DNA of 64,000 bases, taken from the sequence record MH051917; one strand, given 5' to 3'. This DNA is from Enterobacteria phage vB_EcoM_IME341. The notes below the pieces were generated by a model. The model saw only the letters and a list, made by a program, of their open reading frames with translations, was not told the DNA's origin and did not search any database. Shown piece after piece: positions 39,195 through 44,467 of the stretch; positions within the stretch are counted from its first letter, which is position 1; each line of letters begins with the position of its first letter. A program made the translations under genes and the position numbers.

Positions 39195-39206
39195 TTTAAA
39201 AAAGGT

Positions 39207-40815: not shown

Positions 40816-41235
40816 ATGATTACTCCAATTCTTATCGATTTTAACAGCGAAACCTGGGAAAATCCAGAAATCGCTACAGAAGTATTTTATAACTGCCAAC
40901 CATCTGAAATTAACTATAATTGTTTTGACGGGAATTTAATCCGTATTTGGTTAAAATCTAAAGAACACTCGGCCCATATTGTGGCTACAGTCTGTGATGA
41001 CGAGTTATATGAAATGTGTTCCGGCGTAACAGAATTTGATGCCGATTTAATTGCTGGATGGTTATTCACTGTTTTATTTGAAGATGTTTGGTCACCAGGC
41101 GGTGAACAATTCTGTTTCAGCGAGTTTGGTAAAAAGTTAGGTGTTTTTTCTTCGGATGACACCAATTTTAATATTTCGCCTGATATTTGTGTACACTATG
41201 ATGGCCCTTCCGAAGGTTGGAATTGGTCTAGTTAA
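40816..41235 (+). CDS. hypothetical acidic protein
   Basis: 139-aa ORF with AGGAAAA RBS. Confidence 0.5.
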   Translation: MITPILIDFNSETWENPEIATEVFYNCQPSEINYNCFDGNLIRIWLKSKEHSAHIVATVCDDELYEMCSGVTEFDADLIAGWLFTVLFEDVWSPGGEQFCFSEFGKKLGVFSSDDTNFNISPDICVHYDGPSEGWNWSS

Positions 41236-41242
41236 GAATTAA

Positions 41243-41319
41243 GGCCCTGTAGCTCAATGGTTAGCAGCAGTCCCCTCATAAGGGAAAGGTTACCAGTTCA
41301 AATCTGGTCTGGGTCACCA
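41243..41319 (+). tRNA. tRNA with CAT anticodon (Met, or Ile2 if lysidine-modified)
   Basis: cloverleaf folded by hand: T-arm ACCAG-TTCAAAT-CTGGT, anticodon loop CTCATAA, 3' CCA encoded; one acceptor mismatch. Confidence 0.65.
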
Positions 41320-41387
41320 ACTTTGATTAGGTAGAGCAGTCAACTTCTCCATGAATAAATATCTATATAAAATTCATGGAGAAAATT

Positions 41388-42047
41388 ATGCTTTGCCAAT
41401 ATTGTTCTAAAGAATGTAAAAACTTAAATTCACTAAAGCAACATGAAAAACGGTGCAAATCTAACCCAAATGGATTAGATATGAGCGGCCCTAATAACCC
41501 TCGTTTCGGTCTTAAAGGTGTCAATCAATTTACAAAAGCCAAAGAACTAGGTAAAGAAATAAAGGTTTCTGATAAAACCAGAGAAAAACTTAGAAAAGCC
41601 AATACAGGATATGTATGGTCTAATGAACGCAAAGAAGCACATTCTAAAAGAATGCGGCAAGCTGTTCTTGATAATCCTGATTCATATTCTGCTTCTAATG
41701 TTTCTGGTCGAGTAAAAACATATGAGTTTGACGGATTTAAATTTAAAGGGACTTGGGAATTAAAAGTTGCTAAGTTTTTAAAAGAACACAATATCAAATA
41801 TACTAATGAAATAAAGCCAATTCCTTACGAATGGGAAGGTTCAGAACATCTCTATTTTCCTGATTTTTATTTACCCACTTATGATTTTTATATAGAAGTC
41901 AAAGGATATAAAAGAGATAGAGACCTTTGTAAATGGAAAGCTTTAGAAAATTTGATAGTTTTAGAAAAAGATGAGATTTCCGATTTGTCTTGTCTTTTAA
42001 ATAAATTACGTCCCGCTGGTGTAATGGATAGCATACGATCCTTCTAA
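41388..42047 (+). CDS. free-standing homing-endonuclease-like protein: CxxC...HxxxxC zinc finger, NUMOD-like linker, PD-(D/E)xK domain related to gp4
   Basis: ATG 41388 after GGAGA; C-terminal YFPDFYLPTYDFYIEVKG parallels gp4 YFMDF...FEVK; lies in tRNA cluster like T4 segB. Confidence 0.55.
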   Translation: MLCQYCSKECKNLNSLKQHEKRCKSNPNGLDMSGPNNPRFGLKGVNQFTKAKELGKEIKVSDKTREKLRKANTGYVWSNERKEAHSKRMRQAVLDNPDSYSASNVSGRVKTYEFDGFKFKGTWELKVAKFLKEHNIKYTNEIKPIPYEWEGSEHLYFPDFYLPTYDFYIEVKGYKRDRDLCKWKALENLIVLEKDEISDLSCLLNKLRPAGVMDSIRSF

Positions 42048-42084
42048 GTTTGCGGTCCTGGTTCGATCCCAGGGCGGGATACCA
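42010..42084 (+). tRNA. tRNA-Arg (TCT anticodon)
   Basis: acceptor GTCCCGC/GCGGGAT, T-arm CCTGG-TTCGATC-CCAGG, anticodon loop CTTCTAA, CCA encoded; overlaps 3' end of the preceding ORF. Confidence 0.7.
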
Positions 42085-42314
42085 AATGAAGACTATTATA
42101 TAGTCAAGCCGTCGTATGAAGACTGATTGCCAGCATTCACCGGCGCAACAAACAAGAAACCGGGTCGCTACCGGTAAGTCGTCGGACTGAAGTTCTCTGG
42201 AGTATAGTTCCTCCCACAGTTGTACTGTGTTCTGGTTCTTTACTATCACAGCTGAAACGGCGCACCGAACACTTGCCTAGCAGGTGGAACCCCGACAAGG
42301 TTGCCGCAAGGCAT
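42085..42314 (+). ncRNA. GC-rich non-coding segment downstream of tRNA-Arg; candidate stable RNA (cf. T4 species 1 and 2 RNAs)
   Basis: no ORF, GC clearly above the window background, ends at an intrinsic terminator; inference only. Confidence 0.3.
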
Positions 42315-42342
42315 AGCCCCTTCCGAAAGGTTGGGGCTTTTT
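42315..42342 (+). terminator. intrinsic terminator (AGCCCCTTCC-GAAA-GGTTGGGGCT + T5)
   Basis: GNRA-loop hairpin and U-run; near-identical copy at 42963. Confidence 0.7.
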
Positions 42343-42383
42343 GGCATAATAAATAGATAAGTTAATTAACTTAGGAAATAATA

Positions 42384-42848
42384 ATGAAAACTTACAATGA
42401 ATTTTTGACTGAACAATCTAGTTCAGATGTAAAAGCCGCTGCGATTGCAGCAATTCAAGCAGGTAAATATTCTTACAAAGACGCCTCTGATGAAGAACGT
42501 TTCCGTTTTATTAAAGATTTTAAAGCCGAAGGTTTTACTAATGCTAATACTGTTAGCCGAGTTTTTAAAAGCCTAGCTGCATCAGGTGAATTGTTCCAGA
42601 AAGCTACAGGTAAAGCACCTGCGCCAAAAGCGGACCCTAAAGCCGCTCAAGAAAAAAATATCGCCAAAGGAATTATTTCTAAGTATGAAGCAATTCTTAA
42701 AGAGCTTTTAGTAATCAAAACAGAAGGCCAGAAACTGGCACGGGCACATAGCTTCAAAGATAATCCGCATGCTCACGACTTAGAGTATGTTGAAGATATT
42801 CAGAAAATCATCAAAGACCGTATCTGGTCTGCTAAACAAATCAAATAA
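42384..42848 (+). CDS. internal-protein-like protein with leader [11 protein letters not shown]
   Basis: capsid-targeting leader; 154 aa; position corresponds to ipI in T4. Confidence 0.65.
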   Translation: MKTYNEFLTEQSSSDVKAAAIAAIQAGKYSYKDASDEERFRFIKDFKAEGFTNANTVSRVFKSLAASGELFQKATGKAPAPKADPKAAQEKNIAKGIISKYEAILKELLVIKTEGQKLARAHSFKDNPHAHDLEYVEDIQKIIKDRIWSAKQIK

Positions 42849-42853
42849 CGAAA

Positions 42854-42872
42854 GCCCCGTCTGGGGTTTTTT
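42854..42872 (+). terminator. intrinsic terminator
   Basis: GCCCC-GTCT-GGGGT followed by TTTTTT. Confidence 0.7.
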
Positions 42873-42962
42873 GGTTAACTTAGAGAAATATATGAAACTT
42901 TTAAAATAAAGCTATGTTAGCCTTCCACATAAACCCATTCCGGTTCTACAAGAACTGATTCT

Positions 42963-42992
42963 AGGCCCTTCCGAAAGGTTGGGCCTTTTTTG
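42963..42992 (+). terminator. intrinsic terminator, direct repeat of 42315
   Basis: AGGCCCTTCC-GAAA-GGTTGGGCCT + T6. Confidence 0.7.
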
Positions 42993-43014
42993 TTTCTAAA
43001 AGTTTAAAAAAGTT

Positions 43015-43053
43015 GTTTACACCTCCTTTAAACATGATACTATAGACCTATCA
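43015..43053 (+). promoter_or_regulatory. early promoter cassette; spacer CCTCCTT complementary to downstream SD
   Basis: GTTTAC 43015-20; TACTAT 43038-43; SD AAGGAGA 43067-73. Confidence 0.65.
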
Positions 43054-43078
43054 AAACAACAGAGTGAAGGAGAGTAAA

Positions 43079-43342
43079 ATGGATAATTATGGTGAATTGT
43101 TTAATTTCTTTATGAAATGCGTTCCTGAAGAATTTGGTGCTACTGTTAACGATATTAAGGTTATAGGTGACGACCATCCTATATTTGAAACGTATGCAGT
43201 AATGGGTAATGATGATGGCCAGTGGTATACCGTAAAGGTTGTGGTTAATATGTTTGCCGCCGAAGGTTATGTTAAATTGTCTACCAAAGTTTATCATGAT
43301 AACGATTTTGATGCGGAAGAGTATTTCAATAATATGAAATAA
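43079..43342 (+). CDS. hypothetical protein
   Basis: ATG 43079 after AAGGAGAG. Confidence 0.5.
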   Translation: MDNYGELFNFFMKCVPEEFGATVNDIKVIGDDHPIFETYAVMGNDDGQWYTVKVVVNMFAAEGYVKLSTKVYHDNDFDAEEYFNNMK

Positions 43343-43344
43343 TT

Positions 43345-43381
43345 GTTTACATGGGCTCATGATTAAGATATTATGAGCCCA
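43345..43381 (+). promoter_or_regulatory. early promoter cassette with 9-bp inverted repeat across the -10
   Basis: GTTTAC 43345-50; TATTAT 43369-74; TGGGCTCAT 43352-60 vs ATGAGCCCA 43373-81. Confidence 0.65.
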
Positions 43382-43399
43382 TAATTTGAGGAGAACATA

Positions 43400-43798
43400 A
43401 TGAATATCGAAGATAAAGAAATGCAAGAGTTGTACAATTCATTAACGCCTGAACAACAAAAAGCTGCCAAAGAATTAGAGAAAGCTCTTACTTTCAACTT
43501 GGCAAAAACTGATTGGGCTGCCATGTATGAAGAAAAAACTAGATTAGAACTTGAAGCGGTCGAGAGAAATGAATGGATTGTCGAAACCAAGATTTCTGAT
43601 GGTGGTTGCTCTGTTGAGGTGTCAGCTGTAGTTAAAGGTACCCATGGCGAAAAATCATGGGGCTGGCATAATGAGACAAACAAATATATTGTTCTCTCAA
43701 CGTCAAAAACTTATGGCCAAAGGGCTCCTGTATCCAAAGCTATTATTAAGCAAGCTCAATGGGAAGCCAATGAAATCTGCCTCGCAAAAATGAAATAA
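43400..43798 (+). CDS. hypothetical protein
   Basis: 132-aa ORF after GAGGAG. Confidence 0.5.
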   Translation: MNIEDKEMQELYNSLTPEQQKAAKELEKALTFNLAKTDWAAMYEEKTRLELEAVERNEWIVETKISDGGCSVEVSAVVKGTHGEKSWGWHNETNKYIVLSTSKTYGQRAPVSKAIIKQAQWEANEICLAKMK

Positions 43799-43801
43799 AA
43801 T

Positions 43802-43838
43802 GTTTACATCCCTCAGAGGACAGGGTATAATGTCCTCA
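43802..43838 (+). promoter_or_regulatory. early promoter cassette with 7-bp inverted repeat across the -10
   Basis: GTTTAC 43802-07; TATAAT 43826-31; GAGGACA vs TGTCCTC. Confidence 0.65.
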
Positions 43839-43873
43839 TGGATTATAAATCTTAACCAACTGAAGGAAATACT

Positions 43874-44467
43874 ATGAACACTTTAAAGAAAATCGTTGAA
43901 TTCATCCGTTCTAAACTGGGTACTGCAATGGCTCAGAACCTGTCAATCGAAGACCAGTATACTAAAGCTGCTTCTACCCTGATTGATAAAATCACTGAAC
44001 TCCAGACTGCTCATGTTAAGTCTGTGAATGAAGAAAAACGTATTCGGGCGTTGGCTAATGAAAAAGACCAGCTTGCTGCTTCTAAAGAACGTGAAATTCG
44101 TAAACTGATTGCCGAAGGCGCTGATGTCCAGGTACATGCTAAACTCGGCCTCCTTTATCGTCGTACGGCTACTCAGCTTCGTAAGAAAGCCGATGATTAT
44201 ATCGAAATGCGTAATGAAATTAAACTGAAGGTCAAGGAACTTGATGACTCTCGTCAGGAACTGGCTGTTAAGCTCGAGTACATCCGTGAAACTCGTAATA
44301 TGGCTGCCCTTGGTATTGCTACTGCCGATGATGTTGTTGAAATCGCTGCACTGACTAAGATTGATATTGAAGATACCCTGCTGCGTGTAGAAACGTTTAA
44401 AGGCCCACAGGTTGGAATGGATACGACTTCTGCTGATATCGACGACTACATTAATTCACTTAAGTAA
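43874..44467 (+). CDS. coiled-coil protein, PspA/IM30-like by composition
   Basis: 197 aa, heptad-rich; similarity judged by eye only. Confidence 0.45.

Follow-up and report, generated by a model that had tools for sequence, protein, structure and literature searches.

The interval between the tRNA cluster and e.8

A stretch of 64,000 nucleotides of Enterobacteria phage vB_EcoM_IME341 (sequence record MH051917), referred to below as the window, carries a gene for a protein resembling the internal proteins (IPs) of T4-type phages, and this gene is bracketed by two near-identical hairpins of the terminator type, HP1 (42315–42343) and HP2 (42963–42991). The original prediction was that these repeats would allow the single, hypervariable gene between them to be excised or replaced by homologous recombination. 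From 5′ to 3′, and all on the plus strand, the interval consists of HP1, a late-promoter-like box (AATAAATA, 42348–42355) that matches the T4 late consensus TATAAATA (PMC1524935) at seven of eight positions, a ribosome-binding block (TTAACTTAGGAAATAATA, 42366–42383), the IP-like gene itself (154 codons, 42384–42848), a terminator belonging to that gene (42851–42872), an 89-nt vestige of a second gene (42873–42961) and HP2. Beyond HP2 lie a T4-type early promoter (43015–43043; GTTTACA, 16 nt, TACTAT) and the conserved homologue of T4 e.8 (43079–43342), which is the right anchor of the locus.

The 154-residue protein, identical to gp140 of phage IME341, is conserved and belongs to family phrog_2280, which also takes in leader-bearing proteins of 202–205 and 187 residues encoded at the same locus of other phages (the three types are called IP154, IP202, and IP187 below). 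It begins with a leader of about 10 residues that has the T4 IP-type pattern (MKTYQEFIAE in T4 IPII and IPIII), and the cleavage motif of the prohead protease is a leader ending in (L/I)-x-E. Alignment with the T4 IPs covers this leader and nothing beyond it, and residues 1–44 weakly match phrog_7857, “internal virion protein.” The protein is small, basic, and rich in Lys and Ala, as an IP is expected to be, with values (pI 9.4, Lys 14%, Ala 15%) that are those of T4 IPII and IPIII (pI 9.3–9.5, Lys 13.5–15%, Ala 14–16%), and it is a candidate for packaging and injection. Relatives are present in 493 phage records, compared with 566 for e.8, and none of the database names seen for the family is that of an IP, all of them being “hypothetical protein.” The gene is not hypervariable, as had been assumed, since the protein is 98–100% identical within the genus; what varies instead is the set of genes at the locus. 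Two IP154 variants, those of vB_EcoM_005 (L082, 161–634) and ESCO10 (L093, 1738–2199), have different N-terminal regions and 79–81% identity to the window protein, and look like chimeras of an IP202-type leader region and an IP154-type body.

Two Ip loci are stated for T-even phages (PMC12373910), one by 57B and one by e, and the gene lies outside both of them, between tRNA-Arg/rnaD and e.8. Five more leader-bearing open reading frames (ORFs; MKTY[NQ]EF[IL][TA]E) are found in the window at the classical IP loci, three of them in a row 5′ of trna.4 (38985, 39273, and 39500) and two near e/ipII (51246 and 52068), where 51246 is a clear IPII homologue. The site between rnaC and e.8 is, on these grounds of leader and position, a putative third IP-like locus.

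The third terminator, which the original prediction had placed at 42854, is real. It (AAAGCCCCGTCTGGGGTTTTTT) folds as AAAGCCCC-GUCU-GGGG followed by U6 with an energy of −13.4 kcal/mol, and it has the outer stem of the HP1/HP2 hairpin family, GCCCC/GGGG(C). Its place is taken by a complete copy of the hairpin in the loci of Mosigvirus and Tequatrovirus-like phages, and the terminator looks like a shortened copy of that hairpin. The vestige behind it carries an imperfect repeat (42875–42891) of the ribosome-binding block of the IP-like gene, followed by the first five codons (ATG at 42892, now MKLLK-stop) of a DUF7338 gene fused to its last 17 codons (stop at 42956–42958). It lost 488 bp internally, with about 2 nt of microhomology at the deletion and no use of the hairpins, and the intact gene (184 residues, PF24027) fills the gap between the simple terminator and HP2 in UGJNEcP3, ABTNLsp5, QL01, and others. 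Most of this stretch is covered in each of 14 records, and of these only fDHCT2 and PSD2002 share the deletion with the window; in the other 12 the two halves are about 609 bp apart and the gene is intact. Hence the interval between the repeats is not the single gene originally proposed. It holds two cassettes, the IP-like gene with its own terminator and a decayed DUF7338 gene, and HP2 is the predicted terminator of the latter. Homologues of DUF7338 occur in 559 phage records from unrelated groups (Felixounavirus, jumbo-like myoviruses of Klebsiella and Enterobacter, and Aeromonas phages). The N-terminus of the protein (L004, 2535–3089) looks like a membrane segment and has no IP leader, despite the position of the gene in an IP-like array behind a TATAAATA box.

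Two copies of one hairpin

A repeat search returned a direct repeat of 29 nt, TAGCCCCTTCCGAAAGGTTGGGGCTTTTT (42314–42342) and TAGGCCCTTCCGAAAGGTTGGGCCTTTTT (42962–42990), with 27 of 29 positions identical (93%) and a spacing of 648 nt, which bears out the bracketing of the IP-like gene by two near-identical terminator hairpins. With up to three mismatches allowed, the whole 64 kb contains just two occurrences of the 17-mer core of the repeat, CCTTCCGAAAGGTTGGG, against 0.09 expected from shuffles. Both copies fold alike, into a 6-bp G+C stem, a 2×2 U·U internal loop, two further base pairs and a GAAA loop, which is followed by five or six U residues (GCCCCUUCC-GAAA-GGUUGGGGC and U5 for HP1, GGCCCUUCC-GAAA-GGUUGGGCC and U6 for HP2), and each has a folding energy of −16 kcal/mol, with z-scores of −2.2 and −3.1. 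The two mismatches between them compensate for each other, since together they turn a single base pair from C-G to G-C.

A generic terminator scan called neither HP1 nor HP2 because its loop rule excludes their internal loop, and folding and covariation were used in its place. The hairpins of 30 related loci, described below, fall into 11 distinct variants in which pair 2–21 is CG or GC and pair 1–22 is GC, AU, or GU, and across these variants 88% of the cells pair, compared to 29–67% when the partners are slid. This covariation indicates that the stem is under selection, as is expected for a terminator. With a G+C-rich stem-loop and a U-run directly after it on the transcribed strand, both copies have the makeup of an intrinsic terminator, and they would be copies of a single one; that transcripts would end there has support from position.

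In T4 there is one homologous hairpin (GCCCCGACCGAAAGGTTGGGGC followed by T5), which lies about 55 nt 3′ of the annotated rnaC, and the e.8 promoter and e.8 are found about 150 nt beyond it with no gene between. The trailer that precedes it is the same as that of the window (42267–42314, plus strand), which stands before the hairpin in all 30 loci and whose first 33 nt are invariant. Since HP1 is the homologue of the T4 hairpin behind the same trailer, it is the probable terminator of the tRNA/stable-RNA cluster. The T4 hairpin is reported to be the tRNA-operon terminator (Broida and Abelson 1985). It resembles HP1 in position, sequence, 55-nt trailer, outer stem, GAAA loop, and T-run, but its stem is fully paired (GACC/GGUU) and it is single-copy, whereas the hairpin of the window has two U·U mismatches in the inner stem and is duplicated.

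Outside the window, a third hairpin of the GGCCC type is present at the uvsW.1/uvsY-side convergent junction in the Dhakavirus genomes L067 (4249–4265), L035, L060, L070, and L020. A conserved bidirectional terminator has been predicted at the uvsW.1/uvsY convergent junction of T4-like phages (PMC1524935), and the copy found there suggests that the hairpin is a general-purpose terminator and not specific to the IP locus. The exact 17-mer also has many single matches in IMG/VR, besides those in T4-type genomes, in contigs of quite different sizes, and these are taken to be chance or convergent terminators.

The two copies differ in the promoter that follows. HP2 and the e.8 promoter together (42963–43043) make up an early promoter joined to a stable stem-loop, of the type known as promoter early stem-loop (PeSL) elements, while HP1 is followed by the late-promoter-like box and by no early promoter, such that the PeSL composite exists only at HP2. 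A perfect TATAAATA directly follows the T-run of the hairpin in most of the 30 loci, and the AATAAATA box of the window may be a late promoter. Of 12 T4-type early promoters (TGTTTAC... TACTAT/TATAAT) in the window, ten have a strong stem-loop attached, which lies 5′ of the −35 box or in the stretch that separates it from the −10 box (39206, 39774, 43014, 43344, 43801, 48492, 54048, 57966, 61226, and 62961), and several of them share a near-identical block of about 45 nt, for example those at 39206 and 48492. Only 4% of random 50-nt windows reach −12.9 kcal/mol or better. The region is therefore full of PeSL-like elements, HP2 with the e.8 promoter being one of them.

Gene arrangements in related phages

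The window comes from a T4-type phage whose nearest relatives are the Dhakaviruses EcWhh-1, fDHCT2, UGJNEcP3, WG01, QL01, and IME08. The interval from the trailer to e.8 was extracted from 30 genomes and annotated by one script; a survey of IMG/VR with the e.8 protein, and then by e.8 alignment, led to the same nine loci and was extended by single records of the phage collection. At least nine gene arrangements were found between rnaC and e.8, and a hairpin starts every cassette array. The site is empty in T4 and ABTNLS3. IP154 lies between two hairpins in SF, 4E10, L085, L086, and ESCO10, and is followed before the second hairpin by its own terminator and the DUF7338 vestige in the window, fDHCT2, and PSD2002, or by that terminator and the intact DUF7338 gene in UGJNEcP3, ABTNLsp5, 04086, QL01-like phages, vB_EcoM_005, and GRNsp7. 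DUF7338 is the only gene between the hairpins in IME540, LHE83, and MX01, and in JS98, EcWhh-1, AnYang, and L081 IP202 and a terminator come behind the second of them. IP202 directly follows a hairpin in IME08, and an IP154 cassette between hairpins is followed by IP187 and a terminator in PhAPEC2, F25, and L087–L089 or by an unrelated gene in RPN187. The presence/absence polymorphism at the repeats to which the original prediction had pointed is thus evident, and the outcome that would have spoken against it, an unchanging set of genes and hairpins with unrelated sequences, is clearly not seen.

In three comparisons the loci differ by one cassette, and the junction of the insertion/deletion (indel) is ambiguous exactly within the hairpin repeat. 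T4 differs from 4E10, L085, and L086 by a hairpin-bounded indel of 535–559 bp that contains the IP154-like gene, ABTNLS3 differs from IME540 and MX01 by about 624 bp containing DUF7338, with a perfect repeat of 29–30 nt, and between IME08 and JS98 the difference is 622 bp and the repeat, which takes in TATAAATA, is about 37 nt long. These hairpin-bounded indels would have been made by recombination and not by another process. The inner-stem dinucleotide is the same in both copies, GA in Tequatrovirus-like loci and TT in Mosig- and Dhakaviruses, and the occurrence of the same double substitution in both copies implies duplication of the hairpin or homogenization between its copies. In GRNsp7 (L095), a Salmonella phage of the Tequatrovirus genus, a T4-type HP1 precedes the IP154-like gene and a Dhakavirus-type HP2 follows a DUF7338 gene that is 96% identical, which is evidence that a cassette and its terminator moved between genera.

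Hairpins are not the only borders. At each border of the IP154 cassette that distinguishes UGJNEcP3 from IME540 there is an imperfect copy of the block of ribosome-binding site (RBS) and start codon. In PSD2002, a recombinant at this RBS/start block, and in QL01, an IME540-type upstream region is fused there to IP154. The borders of the IP187 cassette are GGGCTTTTT, the 3′ arm and T-run of two different terminators, and the IP202 cassette extends from the T-run of a hairpin to the early promoter. The 5′ sequence is common to the IP154 and IP202 cassettes over about 100 nt, which comprise the hairpin, the TATAAATA-like box, the RBS and the first 25–30 nt of the leader. The original view of the repeats as cassette borders holds in that hairpins are used in this way, but the RBS/start/leader block, the GGGCTTTTT arm, and the early promoter are used as often.

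Two apparent traces of recombination did not stand up. The hairpin variant of PSD2002 and QL01 (GGCCC...GGGCT) was considered as a chimera of HP1 and HP2 and rejected as a point variant, and a search for a chimeric A/B hairpin, which would be a direct trace of a crossover between HP1 and HP2, found none. A 209-bp tandem duplication of the hairpin and leader in phage 04086 (L003, 1942–2358; OR842557.1) was also rejected as a recombination scar. Its junction contains NNN (2148–2150) and the copies match at 206 of 209 positions, the mismatches being the Ns, and the duplication is hence an artefact of assembly, most likely from an overlap of contigs that was left unmerged.

The window is itself a product of exchange. 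When its nearest relative was assessed in 150-nt steps, the left flank up to about 42100 was EcWhh-1-like (98–100%), the cassette region UGJNEcP3/fDHCT2-like (99–100%) and the right flank from about 43150 IME08-like (96–100%), and the cassettes of EcWhh-1 and IME08 differ from that of the window. At single-base resolution the left switch falls within 42267–42299, where the trailer 5′ of HP1 is invariant, and the right switch within 42993–43012, in the A/T-rich spacer between the T-run of HP2 and the −35 box. As the switch points flank HP1 and HP2, the cassette was exchanged as a block whose ends lie beside the hairpins and not demonstrably inside them. That no record of the phage collection covers 80% or more of a 2.1-kb query centered on the locus likewise makes the locus visibly mosaic.

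The stable-RNA genes to the left, on the plus strand like the features above, vary as well. A homologue of the T4 stable RNA rnaD (42086–42266) was located by alignment with the annotated rnaD/rnaC of T4 and with ABTNLS3 and JS98, and its middle part (about 42196–42250) is unlike all of the relatives compared. Rfam has no family for the rnaD-like region or for either hairpin. The homologue of rnaC (about 146 nt) is deleted in the window, with the junction at 42266–42267 (GCGCACC|GAACACTTGCC); it is also absent from EcWhh-1, JS98, and IME540, and is present in T4, ABTNLS3, fDHCT2, and UGJNEcP3. Upstream of rnaD are tRNA-Arg (TCT; 42010–42084; found by ARAGORN and as Rfam RF00005) and tRNA-Met (41243–41319), and between these two tRNA genes the ORF list contains an endonuclease-like ORF of 223 codons (41376–42047), which overlaps the 5′ end of tRNA-Arg by 38 nt. 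Its product matches phrog_15137, “endonuclease” (6e-40), and gives a weak match, under the cutoff, to the Pfam family Phage_endo_I. T4 SegB occupies the same map position, and a direct comparison with it revealed no similarity. Among 17 comparison loci, only EcWhh-1 and F25 match 41376–42047, and in other Dhakaviruses the tRNA-Met/tRNA-Arg junction is empty or holds an unrelated “homing endonuclease” of 666 bp. The endonuclease-like ORF is a possible local driver of recombination.

Cassette turnover at the locus

We consider it likely that the hairpins are insulating terminators which, together with other conserved blocks, provide the short homology for deletion, duplication, and replacement of cassettes. 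HP1 would end the early tRNA/stable-RNA transcription unit and HP2 would end the cassette array ahead of the e.8 early promoter, with each cassette in the form of a late-promoter-like box, an RBS, a gene and a terminator, and placed directly behind a terminator, by which it would be transcriptionally insulated. Being conserved across cassettes and phages, the terminator, the RBS/leader block and the promoter can serve as “linkers” of short homology. Two such blocks would occasionally be recombined by the recombination and replication machinery of the T4 type, giving deletion or duplication of the intervening DNA when both are in one genome and a swap of that DNA in mixed infection, and in this way cassettes could be gained, lost, and replaced without harm to the neighboring genes. 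The window would have received its IP-like and DUF7338 cassettes by exchanges with one end in the trailer that precedes HP1 and the other in the spacer from HP2 to the promoter. There are precedents for such events, since deletions and amplifications in T4, including losses of ipIII, occur at microhomologies of 6–10 bp (PMC9391042), recombination between PeSLs and the resulting mini-circles were demonstrated in RB49/phi1 (PMC2839356), and PeSL-like blocks have been noted at the IP loci of T-even phages (PMC2839356, PMC4122927).

Several points weigh against this mechanism. Neither exchange point of the window can be placed inside a hairpin, both being immediately outside; the original proposal that the repeats are a recombination substrate, supported in large part and notably by the three hairpin-junction indels, needs correction for the exchanges that shaped the window. 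The three indels are unpolarized with respect to insertion and deletion, and about half of the cassette borders examined are other blocks or amount to only 7–9 nt. The perfect core of the repeat is 18 nt, which is short compared to the ~50 bp given for efficient homologous recombination in T4 (Singer 1982, as cited in PMC2839356). In addition, the sample comprises 30 loci of the approximately 566 e.8-bearing records and was picked partly for diversity, and termination, late expression, and packaging of the protein are predictions from sequence features.

The exchange points outside the hairpins are what would be expected if the hairpins were terminators only and turnover resulted from crossovers in mixed infection within the long, near-identical flanks, that is, the tRNA/rnaD region and the region from e.8 onward. 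The repeats would then be a by-product and no preferred site of exchange, and the crossovers may be stimulated by double-strand breaks from the endonuclease-like gene 270 nt upstream. The flanks are indeed 94–100% identical across hundreds of bases, the endonuclease-like ORF is itself presence/absence polymorphic at the tRNA-Met/tRNA-Arg junction, and SegB at the same map position of T4 drives preferential inheritance of the tRNA region, according to the title of a reference in PMC4122927. However, crossovers in the flanks spread existing arrangements and cannot create new ones, and hence this route is complementary to exchange at the linkers, not exclusive of it. The three indels that are ambiguous within the hairpin repeat need an event at the hairpin, as does the concerted change of the inner stem. 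There is some chance, although a small one, that flank crossovers with the hairpins as mere terminators are the correct explanation.

The events at the hairpin could also have come about without strand exchange, by replication slippage or template switching between repeats, aided by the hairpin in single-stranded DNA. The repeats are short (29–37 nt), close together (0.55–0.65 kb), and self-complementary, deletions at repeats of 2–10 bp are well documented in T4 (PMC9391042), and about 2 nt of homology sufficed for the 488-bp deletion in DUF7338. Slippage and recombination produce the same sequence, such that the data cannot separate the two, but slippage leaves the exchange between genomes unexplained, both in GRNsp7 and in the three-way mosaic of the window. 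As the source of the indels it is judged improbable.

More specialized routes, in which the hairpin is a structured site in DNA, carry little weight. The version in which a third IP locus with phrog_2280 effectors has its cassettes mobilized structure-specifically at the duplicated hairpin, as an attC-type site or an endonuclease target and by way of circular intermediates, is very improbable. Much the same applies to the broader proposal that the hairpin is the site for a dedicated protein, in an integron-like or attC-like manner, with cassettes excised as circles and reinserted, which has at best a slight chance. PeSL mini-circles were found by Arbiol et al., whose speculation extended to a protein binding GGGG...CCCC stems (PMC2839356), the stem of the hairpin is conserved with compensatory changes and an endonuclease-like gene is nearby. 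Covariation is equally expected for an RNA terminator, however, many borders have no hairpin, and there is another copy at an unrelated junction of convergent genes, where it would be a plain bidirectional terminator (PMC1524935). Moreover, the ORFs scanned in 40816–44467 include the endonuclease-like one but no integrase or recombinase. Finally, a likeness of HP1 and HP2 due to chance or to independent convergence on a good terminator, to which the single exact 17-mers in many IMG/VR contigs with lengths far below or above the ~170 kb of T4-type genomes might point, can be dismissed in view of two occurrences against 0.09 expected per window, identity that runs past the stem into TAG and the T-run, and the same sequence at the same positions with shared flanks in 30 related loci.

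The preferred reading, with terminators and other conserved blocks as linkers, places the locus among known systems, and the principle of cassette shuffling is already known, having been described for the IP loci of T-even phages in 1994 and generalized in 2010 and 2014 (PMC2839356, PMC4122927). The shuffling of conserved blocks at IP loci was reported by Repoila, Tetart, Bouet and Krisch (1994, EMBO J 13:4181), and as that work is represented in later papers (PMC2839356, PMC4122927, PMC3012670, PMC12373910), the ORFs start with a conserved capsid-targeting leader, have blocks of transcription and translation signals on both sides, vary in number, order, and identity among close relatives, and the blocks were proposed to mediate the shuffling of injected effectors. 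The present locus is similar in all of these respects, with the hairpin, the TATAAATA-like box, the RBS, and the leader on one side and terminators and an early promoter on the 3′ side, and with a content that ranges from empty (T4, ABTNLS3) to two genes. It differs in location, as ipI lies by 57B and ipII/ipIII by e whereas this array extends from the tRNA/rnaC cluster to e.8 and is empty in T4, in that one of its cassettes (DUF7338) is without an IP leader, and in that its border is G+C-rich and derived from the tRNA-operon terminator, while the stem-loops of the IP loci are weaker and A/T-rich (PMC2839356).

PeSLs were described in RB49/phi1, PST/T4, and nt-1/KVP40 (Arbiol et al. 2010, PMC2839356; Comeau et al. 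2014, PMC4122927) as composite terminator/promoter repeats across hyperplastic regions, where indels between close relatives end in the elements, as they do here. HP2 and the e.8 promoter fit the subclass with the stem-loop in an A/T-rich region 5′ of the −35 box; in contrast to PeSLs, HP1 is followed by a late-promoter-like box, and the early promoters of the window are of the T4 type (GTTTAC) and not the exact sigma-70 consensus. Accessory genes, including ipIII, are likewise lost or amplified at short repeats in T4 (Srikant et al. 2022, PMC9391042), but those were laboratory events at repeats of 2–10 bp and the present ones are deduced from natural genomes with repeats of 29–37 nt. The GGGCTTTTT arms at the borders of the IP187 cassette are similar to the GGGC/GCCC motif of Mosig et al. 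(1998; cited in PMC2839356). Integron-like systems are different in having a dedicated site-specific recombinase by the array, and none was found here among the ORFs scanned.

Since the role of conserved regulatory blocks as recombination linkers is already established, the gain is incremental. The new points may be a third IP-like locus that is empty in T4, the use of a tRNA-operon terminator with a late-promoter-like box as a border, and a common, unannotated family of leader-bearing proteins. All three T4 IPs inhibit different GmrSD type IV restriction enzymes (PMC12373910), and because IPs are injected with the DNA and inhibit GmrSD, the IP set of a phage helps to decide which hosts it can infect. 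The locus is a clean natural example of the swapping of effectors, and its exact pairs of empty and filled sites make the mechanism testable by PCR and crosses. In addition, the leader-bearing “hypothetical” family, encoded away from the two textbook IP loci, may yield new anti-restriction proteins.

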